Positions 2,287-57,420 are shown, counted from the whole stretch's first letter. The stretch: 58,760 nt of DNA, filler included, from Circinaria calcarea (GCA_051942165.1; 9 parts of 9 records of this genome joined end to end with filler, not necessarily neighbours in it); one strand, 5' to 3'. The notes: a model not told the origin generated them from the letters alone. Translations and numbers: made by a program.

Positions 2287-5200
2287 GCGTAACCATGATC
2301 GAAAATCTATTCATGACGTAACGAAAAGCATCACAGACAGATCGATACCCCGGATACTGCGAAGGCAGATCCACATTGTATACGAAGGAACGGGTTACTG
2401 GGAGGGATTGGTTCGATTGAGAGACTATGGCTGTTGATACTTACTTCCTAACTGTTTATTCAACAGACATTTGTATGCTACCAATGAAACTCGCTTTTGG
2501 GCCGAAGATAACGGAAAAGTTCGTCATGTACAGCCAGACATGGATTGAGGTGGCCCGTTGACTGATATTAAGTCTATCAAAGTTTATCAGTGAAGCTACC
2601 ATGATCGAGAGTGCTCCTAATCGAAGGCTGCCCTCTGTGCCTCCTTGGTCAGATATACGCTAATTAACTCTTAGGGCTCACGTCTTCTTCCACATGAATC
2701 AAAGACCGGCATGTATTGCAGGCCATGGCCGTGGAATAGTAGGGATATAGCAGGTAAGTTCTGCATTCATTACTTCATTAATAGTGTGTATATGCATGTC
2801 TCGCAGATCATCCTATCAAATTTACATGGAAGACAGAGCTGCGATGCGAACATGCAGCAAAATATGACATATGCAAAAACGTGTCTCTTTTCCTCTTACT
2901 ACTTCCTCGAACAGCTGCTATGGTCTAATTTTGCACTGTGTTGAAGATGCTGAGTCTGCAAGGGATCATCCCTACCACCTCTACCAACTGTTGGCCTCCG
3001 AGGTCGTCATTTCCAACCAGTCTGGCCGTTTAATCGCCAGCCTGACGAAACGCGAAGCCGCACAGCAAGCGTGGGCAAGACGTGCTTCTTACCTTAAGCG
3101 GCGGCGAGAACATTGAGACTCAAGAGTACATCATTATTGGCGGCGCTCAAAGTAGAAAGCACGTCTTCTCTTCGCTTTCCACCCCCCTCACCATCCGCTC
3201 GAGCCAGCCGAGAGCAGCCACTCCACCCAGTTCAACTGCGCCCCACCCTTTCACCTCCTTCCACCCTATCAACGAGTATAATCGAAGCTCTTCCTCTTCC
3301 AGCGTACTCAGAGCAGCGGAGGCGCAGAGCACGGAGAGAATGAAGTATTACATGTTGAAAGGATTAGAGAAGATCAATAAAAGCGTGATCGTAACATGTT
3401 CGATTGATCGAGGCATTTATACTGATTGCTACCTATGGTAGCACCATACCGTCTAGGGATAATCAATTGATGGCCCGTTTCCCCGGAACAAACTGCGTTT
3501 TCAACCACCCTAGCAAAGTCAACTTTCCACCGGCGGTCTCTGCGGAGATTGTAACAGATTTTTTTCCCTCGGACTGGTAAGGGTTGTCATCGACAGCCAC
3601 TAAGAACGGCTTTAGTCGGAGAGAGAGATAGCACGCCGAGTCCGAGCCAACCTGTCAATTGCTGGATAGACGCTCGCAACGCGGTAGCTGATCCAAAGAA
3701 AGATATACCCAATCGGAATTGAAACCGCATTCCAGCACAACATTTACCTCATGGCGACTCCCGGCTCTACCATGTATACTGATTGTAAGGTAAAAGTCCA
3801 TACGGATCGACCTTAGCGCTGATCAGGAAAGTTGGAACATTCCTTCTTGCCAATCGGAAGCTGCAAACCTTATACCACCGGTCGATTCGAGCTGTCGAGG
3901 AATCTTGTAACCATGTAAATATCACATACTCCACTCCTTTGCTAGCACGTGGATACCCGCAGCTTATATGCATGCAATCACTAGCGTGCTACACCACCAC
4001 GAAGATCTCAAGCAACGTTTCCACGTTTCAATCTCGAGGTGTTGTTTGCTGCGATAATTATCAGGGCAGACCAATATTCTGCATATGTCCCTGGATATCT
4101 ACAATGGCTGATTACCCGACGGAAACGGGTCGATCTATCAGACCGGTGCTCTATTCCACATAAGCATTTCGCTCATCAAGGTTGTTATCTCATATATTCC
4201 GAGAGATGTTTTCGACATATCATTATCTACTGCATAGCAGTTACTGGAACAGACAGCGTCTATCTTGCATTACGCTGAAACTACTCGCTTTCTTATCTAT
4301 TTAATAGGATAAGGCGATAATGCTTTCCCACAATACAACCCGTTATCTTCTTTGTTCTTAAGGGAATATCTCAGTGGATAGCCTTCGAGACCGCGAGGGA
4401 AAAGGCCACCGAACATTCTATCTGATATTGAAAAACTGCCACTTTGCCAACAGCACAATGGTTTCTGAAAAGGGTTGTATCTTACTTTCCACGTTTCTTT
4501 CTATCCGCAATGGAGCCATTTCTCCAAACGTATCATCGACCACGCCGGATTGGAATGGACAACAAAGTCTAGAAATCCCAAGCAACGGGCTGTACGAATC
4601 ATTATGCACGCAGGATCTGTATAAATTCTATAACAAAAAGCGCTTACGCGCAAGATTTAAGTGGGATAGGACTCGGAGATTTCAACTTGGACGATAGAAT
4701 GCCGCATGATCAAAGGGAACAATACTCGGCCATAACGTAGCTTCGTACCTTTAATCAAAAAACAAATACGGCGATGAAGATTGGCGTGGGATCAATATTG
4801 CAAGCTCATCCGCCCTCGATATATTATATTGACCCTTCAAAGCATCTGCCCGCCCCCTGGCCCCTTCTCCTTTATCGACGGCATCTGTTAGCAAGTTTAG
4901 TTTGAGAGAGATGTAAGGATGTCATAAAGTAGCGGGTCGGTATCAACGCTCCTTTGGACTTCTTGAACAGGTGTAGGTAGCCGTTATGCTCATTATTCCT
5001 TGTCGAAGCATTAGGATCTTGCGGGTTTTGACGTACCTAGAGCTTCGACAGAGACCAATTGCTGCATGAAAGCTTCAAAGACAGAAGCGCTGAGAAAGGG
5101 AAGAAGCCGCATGAAAAGGAACTCACAAGACAAGAGGAAAATAGTAGCCCCAGAGTGGGAGCATGCAGTGGTAAATGTCTCATATGTCTCCTCACTAATC

Positions 5201-6452: not shown

Positions 6453-6552
6453 NNNNNNNNNNNNNNNNNNNNNNNNNNNNNNNNNNNNNNNNNNNNTTAA
6501 TTAATTAANNNNNNNNNNNNNNNNNNNNNNNNNNNNNNNNNNNNNNNNNNNN
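6453..6552. other. Artificial contig-joining spacer
   Basis: 44 N + TTAATTAATTAA (stops in all six frames) + 44 N. Confidence 0.98.
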
Positions 6553-13002: not shown

Positions 13003-13102
13003 NNNNNNNNNNNNNNNNNNNNNNNNNNNNNNNNNNNNNNNNNNNNTTAATTAATTAANNNNNNNNNNNNNNNNNNNNNNNNNNNNNNNNNNNNNNNNNN
13101 NN
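13003..13102. other. Artificial contig-joining spacer
   Basis: 44 N + TTAATTAATTAA + 44 N. Confidence 0.98.
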
Positions 13103-19549: not shown

Positions 19550-19649
19550 NNNNNNNNNNNNNNNNNNNNNNNNNNNNNNNNNNNNNNNNNNNNTTAATTA
19601 ATTAANNNNNNNNNNNNNNNNNNNNNNNNNNNNNNNNNNNNNNNNNNNN
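19550..19649. other. Artificial contig-joining spacer
   Basis: 44 N + TTAATTAATTAA + 44 N. Confidence 0.98.
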
Positions 19650-26093: not shown

Positions 26094-26193
26094 NNNNNNN
26101 NNNNNNNNNNNNNNNNNNNNNNNNNNNNNNNNNNNNNTTAATTAATTAANNNNNNNNNNNNNNNNNNNNNNNNNNNNNNNNNNNNNNNNNNNN
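26094..26193. other. Artificial contig-joining spacer
   Basis: 44 N + TTAATTAATTAA + 44 N. Confidence 0.98.
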
Positions 26194-32635: not shown

Positions 32636-32735
32636 NNNNNNNNNNNNNNNNNNNNNNNNNNNNNNNNNNNNNNNNNNNNTTAATTAATTAANNNNNNNNN
32701 NNNNNNNNNNNNNNNNNNNNNNNNNNNNNNNNNNN
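32636..32735. other. Artificial contig-joining spacer
   Basis: 44 N + TTAATTAATTAA + 44 N. Confidence 0.98.
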
Positions 32736-39176: not shown

Positions 39177-39276
39177 NNNNNNNNNNNNNNNNNNNNNNNN
39201 NNNNNNNNNNNNNNNNNNNNTTAATTAATTAANNNNNNNNNNNNNNNNNNNNNNNNNNNNNNNNNNNNNNNNNNNN
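39177..39276. other. Artificial contig-joining spacer
   Basis: 44 N + TTAATTAATTAA + 44 N. Confidence 0.98.
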
Positions 39277-45707: not shown

Positions 45708-45807
45708 NNNNNNNNNNNNNNNNNNNNNNNNNNNNNNNNNNNNNNNNNNNNTTAATTAATTAANNNNNNNNNNNNNNNNNNNNNNNNNNNNNNNNNNNNN
45801 NNNNNNN
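45708..45807. other. Artificial contig-joining spacer
   Basis: 44 N + TTAATTAATTAA + 44 N. Confidence 0.98.
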
Positions 45808-45809
45808 CT

Positions 45810-46970
45810 AGTGATTATCTCGATATTTCAGAAGATTTAGTCTCTATTCTCCCTTATGCGTTCGGAGTCGCCTCGGACAACGCAATTACTGCTTTATTAT
45901 ACTCACAAAGAGTGGTTGATACGCTATCGACAATTGGAACGGACGATAACTTTATCAGGAACAGGATCAGGATCAGATCAGCCACCGAGAAGCCGCTGTT
46001 CATGACAGCGCTCGAAGCGCGACAACCCGCAGCTTTCAAGTTCTTCCTACAATACTACGAGAAACAGGACGAGATACTTCGAGACCACCTTAAGGTGGCG
46101 ATCGAACACTCCGATAAAGATATGGTGGTTATGCTTCTCGACGCCGGTATAGATCCATGGGATAGAAAGACTAGCTTGGATTGGAGTCCTCTAGAAACGG
46201 CCGTGAAGTTCGATTCATTGCCAATACTGAACAGTCTCATGAGCATCAAGACCGGGACTACCAATTTTGCAGATGACTATGAGAAAGCGTTGTTGTACGG
46301 AATTAAGCATTGTGGGCAGGAGTTTATCAAGCTACTCTTAACCGCAAATATCCCCACGCCGTTGGATGAAACCGATGCAAGATCGCAATATGTTCATATC
46401 CCCGACAAGGTTGTACTGAGGTCTGCTCTGGAGCAGAGACGACTCGATGGCTTATTCGGCGTCGATGATGTTCAACATCTACTTGTACAACACTCTATGC
46501 TCCCTTCATCCGCAAACAGCGTAGACACATCCTTCGCTTCTCGCAGGAGACGGGAGCATAGCATCTCAAGAATTGACCGGGGGGAACGATCACCCTTGCA
46601 GGGACATGAACTTCCTGCGCCGCACTCATACTTTCAGACGATACCGGACCGCCCCGCCGAATCTTTCCACTCTCGTGGCCTTCTCCTTGACCAAATATGC
46701 AGTCCTGGGAAGGTCAATGTAGTATGTCCTGGAGACTGTATCATTGATGCTGGACAGGATCACGGAGATGTCCCTACAGCCTCCAGCCGATCTTCATATC
46801 AAACCCTTTGGGATGATGCAACTTCGTATCATACAAGGGATACTAGTTTATCCTATCTTACCGATTCAGTTGACCTGGTAAATAACAATGAGTCTAGCAG
46901 TCAATATGAGACAGATATGGAGATATATAATAATAGTGCTAACGATTACCTCCTGTGTATCAACCGATAA
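45810..46970 (+). CDS. Ankyrin-repeat-containing protein, C-terminal fragment
   Basis: Frame open from contig start; degenerate ANK repeats HLKVAIEHSDKDMVVMLLDAGID, SPLETAVKFDSLPILNSLM, ALLYGIKHCGQEFIKLLL. Confidence 0.7.
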   Translation, partial: SDYLDISEDLVSILPYAFGVASDNAITALLYSQRVVDTLSTIGTDDNFIRNRIRIRSATEKPLFMTALEARQPAAFKFFLQYYEKQDEILRDHLKVAIEHSDKDMVVMLLDAGIDPWDRKTSLDWSPLETAVKFDSLPILNSLMSIKTGTTNFADDYEKALLYGIKHCGQEFIKLLLTANIPTPLDETDARSQYVHIPDKVVLRSALEQRRLDGLFGVDDVQHLLVQHSMLPSSANSVDTSFASRRRREHSISRIDRGERSPLQGHELPAPHSYFQTIPDRPAESFHSRGLLLDQICSPGKVNVVCPGDCIIDAGQDHGDVPTASSRSSYQTLWDDATSYHTRDTSLSYLTDSVDLVNNNESSSQYETDMEIYNNSANDYLLCINR

Positions 46971-48328
46971 GCCTGTGGTACTGGCCTTGTATTACTACCA
47001 ACTGCAATACATACAGCCACTAGAGAAGCTGTGGGGAGTCCTCCGGAACAGTTCCATCCTTCGGTTCTTGAGAAGCTTGCAGCTTCGAACTAATAATACG
47101 AATTGTGGTTCGCAATATTAATACGTCCATCTATGATAATGGTGGAACCTTGAGCGATACCTGCGAGACCTGGGGCAGACCTTGTGCAAGGTAAGAAGGC
47201 TTGACGAAATCTCAGATCGTATTCCAAAAAGTGTTCATGATCCGAAGTAAAGCTGACATGTGTCTTTATAGTATGTCGACTGAAATGGCGGTATCCAAGT
47301 AAATTATGCTGATGGCGAGGAGCACCAAACTCTACCGTAAAACACGGGTCTATCATTCAAGCGATCTGACCAGTATCATTTTGGCAAGAGATATAAGCCA
47401 AGGCCCTCGTTCGGAAGCAACAAAGCATGGATGAGAGACCACCCGAGAACTACGAACCCAGGGCTTCTATGGTACAAGGCATTGAACTGCCGAAAGAGAA
47501 CTATCTCGCTTGCACCATTACTGCAGCTTTAGGTTCTCCCGGTGGTGTTAAAAACACCTCCGATCCGTCACAACTCGATATTCATGGCGGTCCAAGCTCG
47601 TATCCATGCATTCCCACAATCAAACTCTACGAGATATGAGTTTTCCAGCGCATGTTACCTATTATACCCGAGCCCTTGGAATTATATACTTGCAGCGAGT
47701 TGTTCGAATATGGCTTACCGAGTCACGTGTGATTTACATATTACGCGAGGTCCATGCTCAACACCTCCGACACATCTTATAAGAGCACTTTTCGCTGCAT
47801 AATTAATGTAGCTATCGCCTAAATCGCAATATATGCATGCCACCACACATGCATGCTGCTTGACACAAGTCCTGTAACCTCCTCCACTCCCTTTATACTA
47901 CCCGCATCCCTCGTACACTCCCATGACTAGCAAACCGAAAACTGGCTTCGTAACGTCAAAGTAATATAAAGTATTACCAAGTTGCAAAGCCATATACCAT
48001 AGTTCTCAAATTTCATTTAGGTTATCATCCCCTCAGATCGCTCCTCAAACTCAGCGTGGTAAACTTGAGTATAGCGGCACGCATCGTGTCCTCCCAACTG
48101 CTCTTTTTGAATCGGTCTTCTCGCTTCATATTAACGCTCCTGCTGATCGATTGTATATTCAAATTAAACGATTAGCTTTATCACATTTTGATTGCCTAAT
48201 CTACTGACAAAAGGTAAGCCTGTTGAGTATATCAAGTGAAGGAAGGATGGATTTCTAATCGTGGGGAAACCCCCGGGGGGATATACTGCTATGGTAACTA
48301 ATGCGCTGAAATCCCCACTATCCCTATT

Positions 48329-51376: not shown

Positions 51377-52237
51377 TCACTTGACCTTCCTTGGTGGGTT
51401 TGCTTCGATCCTCACGCACTCCGCCAATTCCGGGTGAGCTTGTGCAAAAGCGGGACCCAAGCTCCAATTATTCAGCTTTCGTAGATGTTGCTCAAACAGA
51501 GGGTTAATCGACATTTCGTCAGACGCCGGGTCGGGTAAGATAGTATCATTGTCGTCGTAAGGCCAGTTGATGGACAGGCTTGTCGTATAGGGTATAAACC
51601 AGTTATCGAATGGGTAGCTGCGGTAGTTGGCCACCATCAAGTCACGTACACGCGGCCACGGTAGATAATCCAACCAAGCAGAATGCGGAGTTGAGAATTG
51701 TAAGGGGGTCGGCCTCATCCATTCCGGAAGGCGGTCGTAATTTTCCCGTGTTGGAGCTACTTGCCAACGCAAGACAACATGCATCGCATAAAGTGAAGCA
51801 ACCTGTTCTGGTAGGGAGGAAAGATCGGGGAATTTACTATGGATGTCAATTAATATCCTCGAGACTGGATGAGAGTATGGGATGCGCTCTGGGCGAAGCA
51901 GACAAGATACATCGAGATCAGCAGGTCCGGCTAGCTCACATGTCGGAACGCCCTCAGAAGCTCGCAATTTCCTCTCTGCAACGAACCCCAAGAGGAGCTC
52001 ATCTAGAGGGCATGTTGGAGGCACATTGTTGATCATTGCCGGATTTGGTGGCAGTGATACATCGTTGAGGATAGGCGTCCTGTAAGCCTGGATTGAGGCC
52101 TGGGGATGCGACGTGGTGAGTGTAATATGAGAATCCGCGGGAAGTGGCGGTCCTCGCCGTCTGTACTCTGGCGCTTGTCCGATAACCGGCAGCTCTTGGC
52201 CTTCATTTCCAAAGAAGCCAAAATCCGCCCTTACTGC
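51377..52237 (-). CDS. DUF3425-domain protein (usually bZIP-associated), 5'-truncated
   Basis: PPTCPLDELLLGF..HPVS..LPEQVA..RWQVAPTRENYDRLPEWMRPTPLQFSTPHSAWLDYLPWPRVRD..SINWPY..FEQHLRKLNNWSLG; frame open to contig end. Confidence 0.85.
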   Translation of the reverse strand, partial: AVRADFGFFGNEGQELPVIGQAPEYRRRGPPLPADSHITLTTSHPQASIQAYRTPILNDVSLPPNPAMINNVPPTCPLDELLLGFVAERKLRASEGVPTCELAGPADLDVSCLLRPERIPYSHPVSRILIDIHSKFPDLSSLPEQVASLYAMHVVLRWQVAPTRENYDRLPEWMRPTPLQFSTPHSAWLDYLPWPRVRDLMVANYRSYPFDNWFIPYTTSLSINWPYDDNDTILPDPASDEMSINPLFEQHLRKLNNWSLGPAFAQAHPELAECVRIEANPPRKVK

Positions 52238-52337
52238 NNNNNNNNNNNNNNNNNNNNNNNNNNNNNNNNNNNNNNNNNNNNTTAATTAATTAANNNNNNN
52301 NNNNNNNNNNNNNNNNNNNNNNNNNNNNNNNNNNNNN
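52238..52337. other. Artificial contig-joining spacer
   Basis: 44 N + TTAATTAATTAA + 44 N. Confidence 0.98.
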
Positions 52338-54036: not shown

Positions 54037-55819
54037 ATGCACGCGTTTGCACTGTGGTTTCTACCTGCAGCTGCCATCTTATCTGGGTGCGCGGCAGCCC
54101 CAGCCAACAAATCAACAGGACCGACCTGTCGCTACTTGCCAGGGGACCTTCGCTAGCCTAGTCACTCTAAGTGGAAACGAGTGAACGGATCCGTTGGCGG
54201 TAGGCTCATTGTTGGGAAACCTCTGGCTCAGGCTTGCTATGGGTCCGACTACGACTCCGGTGCATGTGCTGAGATTCAGATAGAATCGACTAAACCACCG
54301 ACTTAGTAAGTCCTGCTCTGAAACCAATCTGTGACCTATTCTGCTCATATCAGAATCTTAGCTTCTAGAACCCTGTTAACGTCATGTCGCCCTACTGGTT
54401 GAATAACTCTTGCAGTGCTTTCACGTCTCTGGAGCTAGCCTGTACGCTGGGCAACATTGCCTCTTATGCCGTCAACTTCAACTGCGTAGATGACGCTGCG
54501 GCTGGGCTCAAATTTGTTAAGGAAAATAATATCCGATTCACGGTTAAGAACACTGGCCACGATTTCCTCGGCAGATCCACCGGTAAGGGAGCCTTGGCAC
54601 TATGGACACACAATCTGAAAAACATGTCCTTTTTCAATTACACTAGCCTTAGCTATAATGGCCCCGTTGTCAAGCTGGGCGCTGGTATTCAGTTGTATGA
54701 AGTTAACAAAGCCGCTGTCGACCACGGCCTGCGAGTCACAGGCGGTTTCTGTCCTACCGTCGGCATAGTAGGAGGTTAAGTCCAAGGCGTCGGTCACGGA
54801 CCTCTCGAAGGCATATACGGTCTCGGCGCAAACAACACGCTGGAGTTTGAAGTCGTGACTGCCGACGGCAGGCATCTCGTGGCCACTCCTACGAAGAACT
54901 CGCATCTGTACTGGGCGCTGAACAGCGGAGGTGGAGGCACCTACGCTGTGGTCCTCTCACAAACGACAAAAGCCTATGCTGATGGCCCTGTCGCGGGCGG
55001 ATCAATAAGGTTCAACAACATGAATGATGTCGGGTACTGGTCCGCAGTAGAAGCCTGGCAAAAGCGCCTCCTCGTTTTCGACAATATCGCTGGCTTCAAT
55101 AGCGTCTGGGGCTTCACGAACGAGACATTTGTGCTCTCCTCCGCAAAGTTACCCGGCGCAAACGCATCCACCATGTCCGCGGCCTTGAATCCGTTCATCC
55201 AAGAGCTCGAAAAGCTCAATGTGGTGCATACCTATGAAACGAGCGGTAAATCGACTTATTACGAGCACTTCGCACAGTACACCCCTAATCTGCCGTTCGG
55301 AGACTACTCAACAAACGAGATCATTGGTGGGCGTCTGATCCCACGGTCGGCTGTGCAAAACACTCTGACGGACCTGCTTGCTACCTTCCGCAATATCTCA
55401 AGGGCCAGAACCCACCGATTCAAAATCAACGGCATCGCGTCCAATGTGACCCACACGCGCGTCGGGAACACCTTGGGCTCTAATGCTGTGCTTCCTGCAT
55501 GGCGGGACTCGCTTTATTGGCTGAACATGGACGTCCGCTTCGACCCGGCAGGGACGGTGGAGACGATCCAAGAACTTCAGGCGCAGATGAACGAGAACCA
55601 GGACCAGCTCAAGGTGCTGAATCCAGGGAGCGGAGGGTACATGAACGAGGGCAGGTTTGATAATCCGGATTGGAAAAGGATTACTACGGAGCAAACTATG
55701 GCAGGCTGTTGGACGTCAAGAGGAAGTATGATCTGAACTTCATCTTGTACGGACCTGCGTCTGTTGGGAGCGACTATTGGACTATGGTCTCGGGTAAAAG
55801 GTTATACAAGGCTCACTAG
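54037..55819 (+). pseudogene. Pseudogene of a secreted FAD-linked oxidoreductase (BBE-like/FAD_binding_4)
   Basis: Signal peptide, CRYLPGD..P, KNTGHDFLGRS, CPTVGIVGG, YWALNSGGGGTY, GGYMNEG; in-frame stops at 54154, 54366 and 54777 plus a 1-bp frameshift at ~55677; intron 54306-54361. Confidence 0.9.
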
Positions 55820-56503: not shown

Positions 56504-57420
56504 CTACCATGGCACCTGTCGACCGTCCCATACCCACAACTTCCCACCATGAGTCTCCCTTTTGGCAACGTCGAATATCTTGATCATTCCCGTAACGCTC
56601 TGTTCCACGGTAAGGGCAGCCTTCTCGAACCCAAAAGCTTTAGCGCCGCGGTTGCCAATGTCTGTCTGAACCCAGCTATAGACAGTGAGTGAAAAGTTAC
56701 ATTATAACTTCACCGACTCCTTTCGGACTTACCCTGGATCGATAGGAAACGCGGTAAGCTCAGGCTCCTCAATGTGGATTGCCTTGGTAAGCCAGTGGAG
56801 AACAACTTTCGTTGGTGCATAGGCGGCGTTTTGCACAGGGAGCATGTCCCTACGGGATGTTAATGCCCGTGGCATATGTACGGGTTGCAGAACGGATGTC
56901 ACTCACTGGATCACGGAGGTTAGCAAGCAGCAAAACGTCCAACATCTCAGGCATGTTCCGGCACACTTACCGTGAGGAATGCGGAAGCAGAGCCCATGCT
57001 CACCCACATGGGACTTTCCGACTTCTTAAGCAAGGGCAGAGTAGCTTGGTAGAGCCAGATGATGCCGTAGGTATTCGGAACGGTATGCTTGTGCATATCC
57101 TCGACCTTAACTTCGGAAACCTTGGGATAAATGTAGGCGACCCCAGCGTTGGCAATGATGATGTCAAGGTGATCGATGCCATTGGATGCAAGCTGCTTCA
57201 CAGCGTCGGCAGGGTCAGTGGGGACGGTGGCATCGACCTTGACCAGGAGAAGAGAGGTGCCTTCAGCCTTGGGCAAATCCGCGAGAGCTTTGGAAGTTGG
57301 ATGATTGGGGTCGCGGTTGGCAGCAATGACGGTGTGGTTTGGTTTGGCGAGGTAAAGCTCAAGGAGGCCTTTGCCAATGCCTCTGTTGGTGCCGGTGATC
57401 AGCACAATGGTTGGTGCCAT
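56504..57420 (-). CDS. Short-chain dehydrogenase/reductase, Nor-1/AflD-like ketoreductase (245 aa); exons 57420-56972, 56849-56733, 56675-56504
   Basis: TGTNRGIG, IANAG, SMGS, YAPTK (YxxxK), IDPGWVQTDIGN; exons sum to 738 nt only if 56971-56850 is removed as a stwintron. Confidence 0.9.
56850..56971 (-). other. Spliceosomal twin intron (stwintron), [D1,2] with alternative [A2,3] route
   Basis: G|GTAAGT..GCTAAC..CAG|TGAGT..ATTAAC..TAG: removing the 65-nt internal intron rebuilds a GTGAGT donor for a 57-nt external intron. Confidence 0.85.

Follow-up and report, generated by a model that had tools for sequence, protein, structure and literature searches.

The minus strand of the window (i.e., the whole stretch of DNA that was analyzed, 58,760 nucleotides) contains a three-exon SDR gene encoding 245 amino acids at 57420..56504 (ATG, 57420-57418; stop codon TAG, 56506-56504), and this gene raises the question of how its first intervening sequence is removed. 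Excision of 56970..56906 (65 nt) alone gives ACG TGA, and excision of 56970..56850 (121 nt) as a single GT-AG intron shifts the frame and leads to a stop at codon 177, both as the preliminary description of this locus had claimed. A net excision of 122 nt yields a 245-aa open reading frame (ORF) reading ...SASAFLTDMLPVQNAAYAPTK... and ...FLTDMLPVQNAAYAPTK..., with the junction FLT-DMLPVQNAAYAPTK. Removal of 65 nt and then 57 nt (the [D1,2] order) and removal of 57 nt and then 65 nt (the [A2,3] order) produce the identical mRNA. The claims that two consecutive splices keep the frame and that their order can be reversed were thereby borne out, and all of the minus-strand signals and coordinates given for the nested introns were reproduced. 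We consider it highly probable (roughly 0.85), judging from these signals and from their recurrence in homologous loci, that two U2-type splicing reactions in succession remove the first intervening sequence, which would accordingly be a stwintron.

Gene model and anatomy of the first intervening sequence

Exon 1 starts with MAPTIVLITGTNRGIGKG and ends with ...SASAFLT, its last full codon (ACG, preceded by CTC) ending at 56971. The N terminus (MAPTIVLITG) agrees with those of homologues, exon 1 matches adh_short in Pfam (E=1.8e-15), and the spliced model contains TGTNRGIGKG, ANAG, and YAPTK, i.e., the SDR motifs TGxxxGxG, NAG, and YxxxK. This Rossmann-fold domain match and the three motifs together place the protein among the classical SDRs (adh_short). 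Besides, the solved SDRs 3wxb and 7ypd each align with a homologue of 87% identity (P0002) from end to end; over the junction region, the alignment of P0002 with 3wxb has a single 3-residue gap, in the query. Exons 2 and 3 are separate aligned stretches also in the metagenome loci L001-L003, L005, L017, and L024/25. By its sequence, the gene product is a classical SDR of the carbonyl-reductase (sniffer) and Nor-1-like group.

In total, 583 proteins matched exon 1 at E<=0.001, and all homologue counts given here rest on the best 120 of these 583. Among these best 120 of 583, the closest named protein is P0007 from a Circinaria calcarea MAG (Lecanoromycetes; 95% identical, 233 aa), and another close named homologue is P0006 from Amorphotheca resinae (Leotiomycetes; 86%). 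The preliminary description had called the product a Nor-1-like SDR; membership in the SDR family stands by sequence, whereas the Nor-1 label finds no cluster context among the 20 ORFs scanned. "Norsolorinic acid ketoreductase" is the label that several homologues carry in their source annotation, and of the 56 ORFs in the window with 130 aa or more, the 20 that were scanned with Pfam (E<=1e-5) showed no PKS domain. The domains in these 20 ORFs were Pex2/12, UCH, Kelch, helicase, SNF2/Mit1, tubulin-like, and DUF3425, i.e., those of housekeeping-type genes. An assignment to the Nor-1/AflD aflatoxin-pathway ketoreductase was rejected on these two grounds, a name taken from homologue annotations only and no PKS among the 20 scanned ORFs.

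The ORFs flanking the SDR gene in the window are 54780..55736 (+), with 318 aa and no Pfam match at E<=1e-5, and 51377..52285 (-), encoding a DUF3425 protein. The window also contains eight pairs of 44-N runs at regular intervals of about 6.5 kb, none of which touches the SDR gene; these look like masking rather than assembly gaps. The coordinates of all features are collected in Table 1.

Table 1. Features of the SDR gene, of its first intervening sequence, and of the window (carets mark splice boundaries)
Feature	Position	Strand	Remarks
Exon 1	56972..57420	-	Ends with AC of codon 150 in [D1,2] bookkeeping; ends at 56971 in [A2,3]
[D1,2] stwintron (predicted)	56850..56971	-	122 nt; exact match to published search model A
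Same element as [A2,3] stwintron (predicted)	56849..56970	-	Alternative removal
G1 of split external donor	56971	-	Third base of ACG in the [A2,3] reading
[D1,2] internal intron	56906..56970	-	65 nt
Rest of [D1,2] external intron	56850..56905	-	TGAGT 56905-56901 plus G 56971 make the donor GTGAGT; 57 nt in all
[A2,3] internal intron	56850..56906	-	57 nt, GTGAGT..TAG; between CA (56908-56907) and G 56849
Exon 2	56733..56849	-	Encodes DMLPVQNAAYAPTK, carrying YxxxK; G 56849 completes codon 150 (ACG) in the [D1,2] reading
Second intron, ordinary	56676..56732	-	57 nt, GTAAGT..TAG, phase 2; splits a codon in PG^W
Exon 3	56504..56675	-	Includes stop codon
N-run pair	6453-6552
N-run pair	13003-13102
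N-run pair	19550-19649
N-run pair	26094-26193
N-run pair	32636-32735
N-run pair	39177-39276
N-run pair	45708-45807
N-run pair	52238-52337

On the minus strand, the intervening sequence is laid out as G^GTAAGT..GCTAAC..CAG^TGAGT..ATTAAC..TAG^G, followed by GAC ATG CTC CCT. The internal intron has the donor GTAAGT (56970-56965), the branch element GCTAAC (56924-56919), and the acceptor CAG (56908-56906); its branch A lies 14 nt from the intron end, and the published formula counts 13 nt from motif to acceptor. The external intron has the branch element ATTAAC (56864-56859), its branch A being located 10 nt before the intron end, and the acceptor TAG (56852-56850), and the first bases past this 3'-most acceptor are G 56849 and then GAC 56848-56846. 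Every sequence-level element of a [D1,2] stwintron was found: a G directly 5' of a complete canonical donor (5'-G^GTNNGN), a self-complete internal intron (DYTRAY 4 to 20 nt before HAG; at least 42 nt), an internal acceptor followed by T-R-W-G-Y such that CAG^TGAGT becomes GTGAGT, an external intron with its own branch element and HAG acceptor, and an ORF restored by two consecutive excisions only, at a position conserved in homologues. The elements of an [A2,3] stwintron were found as well, i.e., HAG^G at 56852-56849 and an internal intron separating CA from that G.

In the [D1,2] path, the internal intron (GTAAGT..GCTAAC..CAG) would go first, whereupon G 56971 would abut TGAGT at 56905 and form the donor GTGAGT of the 57-nt external intron; the latter would leave via ATTAAC and TAG, and AC (56973-56972) would join G 56849 to read ACG GAC (Thr-Asp). 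The exon resumes with G past the 3' acceptor, and for this reason the [A2,3] path would also be open; 56906..56850 would go first, rebuilding the acceptor CA^G for the intron that starts at 56970, and 56970..56907 plus 56849 would go second. We infer from these signals both the two-step removal by the spliceosome of this organism and the order of the steps. The use of the outer GT (56970) and AG (56850) in one step may be a competing, unproductive splice.

We applied the formula of [D1,2] search model A (PMC9024468, section 2.1) to both strands of the window, and it matched the minus strand exactly at 56971..56850. The mean number of formula matches expected by chance was 0.15 per simulated window, counting both strands (200 first-order Markov simulations), and a valid internal junction arose in 25 of 2000 interior shuffles of the predicted stwintron in the window and in 28 to 112 of 2000 for each of 10 homologous loci. 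About one-third of formula matches were authentic in Hypoxylon (90/282; available text of PMC9024468), and consequently it is the comparative evidence, not the formula match, that carries the case. A second match, 57004..56850 (-), starts with GGTGAGC inside codons for W-V-S and was rejected. A third, 47190..47388 (+; 199 nt, GGTAAGA...CAAG), was also rejected, having no coding ORFs on either side and fitting the chance rate of about 0.15 per window; it sits downstream of an ORF ending at 46970 and is probably a product of chance.

The 122 nt were also checked for a hairpin or an internal symmetry like that of the Hypoxylaceae sister stwintrons. Special folding of this kind was not found in them (-34.6 kcal/mol; z = -1.03), 33 of 200 shuffles folding at least equally.

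Homologous proteins and loci

Full-length homologues of 245 to 246 aa read FLT[DN]M[IL]P[MV]QNAAYAPTK, and the flanking motif pair was found with both flanks in 33 of the 120 proteins listed. Seventeen of these 33 (among the matches listed) have a 6-residue spacer from FLT to NAAYAPTK, which is the spacing that results from the 122-nt removal, and the other 16, again among the matches listed, have spacers of 0, 8, 9, 12, 15, 16, 17, or 20 residues. A further 49 of the 120 listed are short ORFs that end soon after codon 150, and 43 of these 49 continue with Val, which indicates a GTN donor directly after codon 150. The motif pair was unmatched in 32 of the 120 rows, and 6 long rows matched the first motif only. 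Two homologues with the 6-residue spacer, P0002 (87% identical, 245 aa) and P0018 (246 aa), are plausibly spliced transcripts, because their ORFs are uninterrupted on contigs of merely 972 and 938 nt, respectively. The 122-nt two-step product is the sole predicted solution that restores the exact spacing of the family.

The preliminary description had expected standard gene finders to mis-model this site, and the homologues agree with that expectation. An insertion or deletion lies exactly at the junction in 16 of the 33 homologues (among the matches listed), and most metagenome ORF calls end within about 20 codons of codon 150. Besides, P0007 is annotated without WVSMGSASAFLT (12 residues, WV..FLT), corresponding in the window to an in-frame 158-nt intron at 57007..56850 (-) with the donor GTGGGT. 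This gap is likely a gene-finder workaround, by which the Gly-Ser stretch preceding YxxxK was wrongly left out of the annotated protein. Recognizing the twin intron gives the correct 245-aa enzyme where automated annotation mis-models the gene.

The first codons past the internal junction of the window (56902..56888, -) translate into VTSVL, and the annotated P0006 has an extra VMTSVL at this place; L001-L003 and L024 also resemble the window in the block GTGAGTG.CA.TCGT.CT. This suggests that the insert in P0006 is an annotated micro-exon of intron sequence and that the second intron is to some degree conserved at its 5' end.

Metagenome contigs were scanned with an alignment of eight full-length homologues, and 60 loci were returned. 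These were anchored on residues 144 and 160 of P0002, and canonical GT/GC..AG and G^GT..AG^T..AG solutions keeping 15 to 19 codons were considered; the junctions of L040, L018, L023, and L010 were read by eye. The tree (38 rows) was obtained from a tblastn alignment anchored on the query, in which the junction columns had been blanked, and in this tree the window falls in a 27-row clade with a support of 100/100. Seventeen rows of this clade have the twin layout, with the pattern G^GT..AG^T(A/G)AG(T/C/G)..AG, and have no canonical solution of the right length. The metagenome loci include near-duplicates, and the 17 rows reduce to 11 distinct sequences including the window (i.e., the window, L001-3 with L024/25, L004, L006/8, L007, L011, L014/15, L034, L035, L017, and L040). 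The strict published formula is failed by L011, L014/15, L034, and L035 and also by L040, which have the layout in a relaxed parse only. Many substitutions and indels separate the intron interiors of the window and of its nearest loci, yet the five signal motifs have been kept. An alignment of homologous genes for a conserved split donor, as the preliminary description had proposed, has thereby traced the layout through 11 distinct sequences with diverged interiors.

L017 and L040 resume the exon with A, and the frame is therefore restored in them by the [D1,2] order only. The [A2,3] path, which needs G at this first exonic base, is not required across the family, and because these two loci permit [D1,2] alone, they suggest that [D1,2] is the conserved path. 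A single canonical intron is present in nine rows, in phase 0 in L005 and in phase 2 in L010, L013, L018, L019, L020/21, L023, and L044 (with a GC donor in L010), and L009 is intronless at this position. The phase-0 locus L005 nests in the window's own 14-row clade with a support of 98/98.

Nine loci were compared with the window for selection on exons 2 and 3. The dN/dS values were 0.06 to 0.13, with dS values of 1.3 to 2.4, against L001, L002, L003, L024, L011, L005, and L014, and dN/dS was 0.21 against L006; dS was not computable against L004. Two breaks were observed among the loci, namely, a one-base frame break within exon 1 of L024 and L025 (near 2711) and, in L018, a TAA in frame near the beginning of exon 2 (near 3022-3027). 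These may reflect decaying copies or mis-assembly.

Alternative explanations

A frameshifted gene with a single ordinary 121-nt intron (56970..56850) would have good outer sites in GTAAGT and TAG, and the frameshift could be that of a pseudogene or come from a 1-bp error in the G run at 56850-56848 or 56971-56970, a possibility that the preliminary description had raised. G runs are prone to errors, and L024 and L025 do have a frame break elsewhere in the gene. However, the same one-base mismatch between donor and acceptor phases is also seen in 10 further distinct contigs, which come from separate assemblies, conservation extends to the internal AG^TGAGT junction and the branch element belonging to it, and the dN/dS values of 0.06 to 0.13 place exons 2 and 3 under strong purifying selection in the very frame that the 122-nt removal restores. 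This selection implies that the frame downstream of the twin intron has been translated throughout the divergence, which eliminates a one-base error in the assembly and leaves a pseudogene improbable, and we consider this explanation very improbable. A canonical 158-nt intron from GTGGGT at 57007, a donor among the 24 of the published list (PMC9024468), to TAG at 56850 would be in frame and would give a 233-aa protein without WVSMGSASAFLT. P0007 (95% identical) is annotated with exactly such a 12-residue gap. Nevertheless, the 12 codons are conserved as coding in all full-length homologues and in intron-less relatives, and their removal would delete the Gly-Ser stretch ahead of YxxxK, which holds the catalytic Ser in classical SDRs. 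This intron would furthermore enclose, to no purpose, an additional donor, branch element, and acceptor that are complete and conserved, and the chance that it is the true one is, in our estimation, slight.

A canonical 116-nt intron starting at the weak donor GTGCCG (56965) would likewise be in frame, adding Val-Arg (...FLTVRDMLP...), but this donor has no G at position 5 and is outside the published 24-donor list (PMC9024468), and the GT is missing at that place in L001-L003 and L024/25. It would require an 8-residue spacer, and the sole one among the matches listed, that of P0100, has a differing sequence (EMAARPMP); this is the least probable of the alternatives, with a likelihood close to nil. 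A one-step non-canonical splice (GG..AG, 56971..56850, or GT..GG, 56970..56849) with no intermediate would yield the same in-frame mRNA as two steps, and the product alone gives no distinction between the two mechanisms. On the other hand, the U2 spliceosome needs GT/GC..AG (available text of PMC5587772), and one step leaves unexplained the internal acceptor, the split-donor motif, and the first branch element found in 11 of 11 distinct sequences. Moreover, splicing intermediates are listed in Table S1 of PMC9024468, by an accession for no-301, which is paralogous, and by an SRA read for no-7, and a one-step splice seems to us hardly credible. Two-step removal of the 122 nt is the reading that we prefer over all four.

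Known stwintrons and the one-nucleotide intron-shift model

Whether stwintrons had been reported in this gene family was left open by the preliminary description, and they are in fact already in print. In Hypoxylon sp. CO27-5, three SDR paralogues carry the [D1,2] stwintrons no-7, no-61, and no-301 "at the very same position" (PMC9024468; J Fungi 2022;8:397). According to Table S1 of that paper, the host proteins have 243, 250, and 246 aa, respectively, belong to pfam00106, and are all interrupted in phase two, and the rows for no-7 and no-61 are also marked [A2,3] YES. A cDNA accession is given for no-61 (OL672707), and the intermediate of no-301 has the accession OL624535 (PMC9024468). Translated by hand, the exon flanks of no-7, no-61, and no-301 read AGCIQ^NLTP, AGKLE^EQPQ, and AAWLE^NMIP, and these occupy the same alignment position as SAFLT^DMLP in the window.

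The window gene and these Hypoxylon genes share the protein family and the protein size (245 aa in the window), as well as the alignment position, past base two of the codon next to [FWCK][LI], which is phase two in [D1,2] bookkeeping. The Hypoxylon stwintrons have 114, 129, and 211 nt versus 122 nt in the window, and the no-301 gene and the window gene have two introns each, with the stwintron first. On the other hand, Hypoxylon sp. CO27-5 belongs to the Hypoxylaceae in the Sordariomycetes (Xylariales), whereas the window's closest named protein is from the Lecanoromycetes, and the flanking peptide differs. The likeness is drawn from the tabulated flanks, not from orthology with one of the three paralogues. 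Occurrence is tabulated in PMC9024468 for the Hypoxylaceae, Xylaria JS573, and Endocalyx cinctus, and no statement on other classes was found in the available text; a term look-up in the available text of PMC12403724 (2025) found no mention of the window's SDR gene. Both the stwintron class and the position in the gene family are already described, and there is no new mechanism. What is new is the predicted instance in a fungus whose nearest named relative is a lichen-forming Lecanoromycete, the layout across 11 diverged sequences, and the canonical introns that related genes have at this site in phase 0 and phase 2, which extend the known range of this stwintron position beyond the Xylariales.

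An alternatively spliced [D1,2]/[A2,3] stwintron has been described in the DHA1 antiporter gene of Trichoderma reesei (PMC5587772; Nucleic Acids Res 2017;45:9085), and Helminthosporium solani is cited there as an earlier case. At the time point sampled in T. reesei, splicing went preferentially by the [D1,2] path (PMC5587772). The layout G^GT..AG^TNNGN..AG^G is identical to that of the window, including overlapping internal introns that share one G and an mRNA that is the same by either path, and in both cases related genes have canonical introns one nucleotide apart. The DHA1 host gene is unrelated, however, and both of its paths were demonstrated by RT-PCR, whereas those of the window are predicted from its signals.

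Recursive splicing at ratchet points of long Drosophila and vertebrate introns is likewise a stepwise removal in which the first step regenerates a 5' splice site, as would be the case for the window stwintron. In that process, one intron does not break into a splice-site element of another (available text of PMC5587772), whereas the donor in the window is physically split by the other intron, and both parts are short fungal introns of 57 to 65 nt.

The occurrence of the twin layout beside canonical introns one nucleotide apart supports the published model in which [D1,2]/[A2,3] stwintrons are intermediates in one-nucleotide intron shifts. Both derivative states of this model were found, i.e., the phase-0 intron of L005 inside the stwintron clade and the phase-2 introns in sister clades. 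Besides, named proteins from the Lecanoromycetes, Leotiomycetes, Eurotiomycetes, and Sordariomycetes have an exon-1 read-through tail or a mis-modelled junction. We would give even odds that the codon-150 stwintron is ancient and has been kept by several paralogous lineages across the classes of the Pezizomycotina, rather than being a peculiarity of the Hypoxylaceae. If this is true, the SDR family would provide a second and larger natural test of a model documented so far for one DHA1 transporter gene.

The lone phase-0 canonical intron at this site (L005:2934-2986, 53 nt) contains a GTGAGT 4 nt before its CAG acceptor. This GTGAGT could be what is left of the split external donor, the second intron having been mostly lost, and L005 would fit the loss, though an imprecise one, of one half of a [D1,2]/[A2,3] stwintron.
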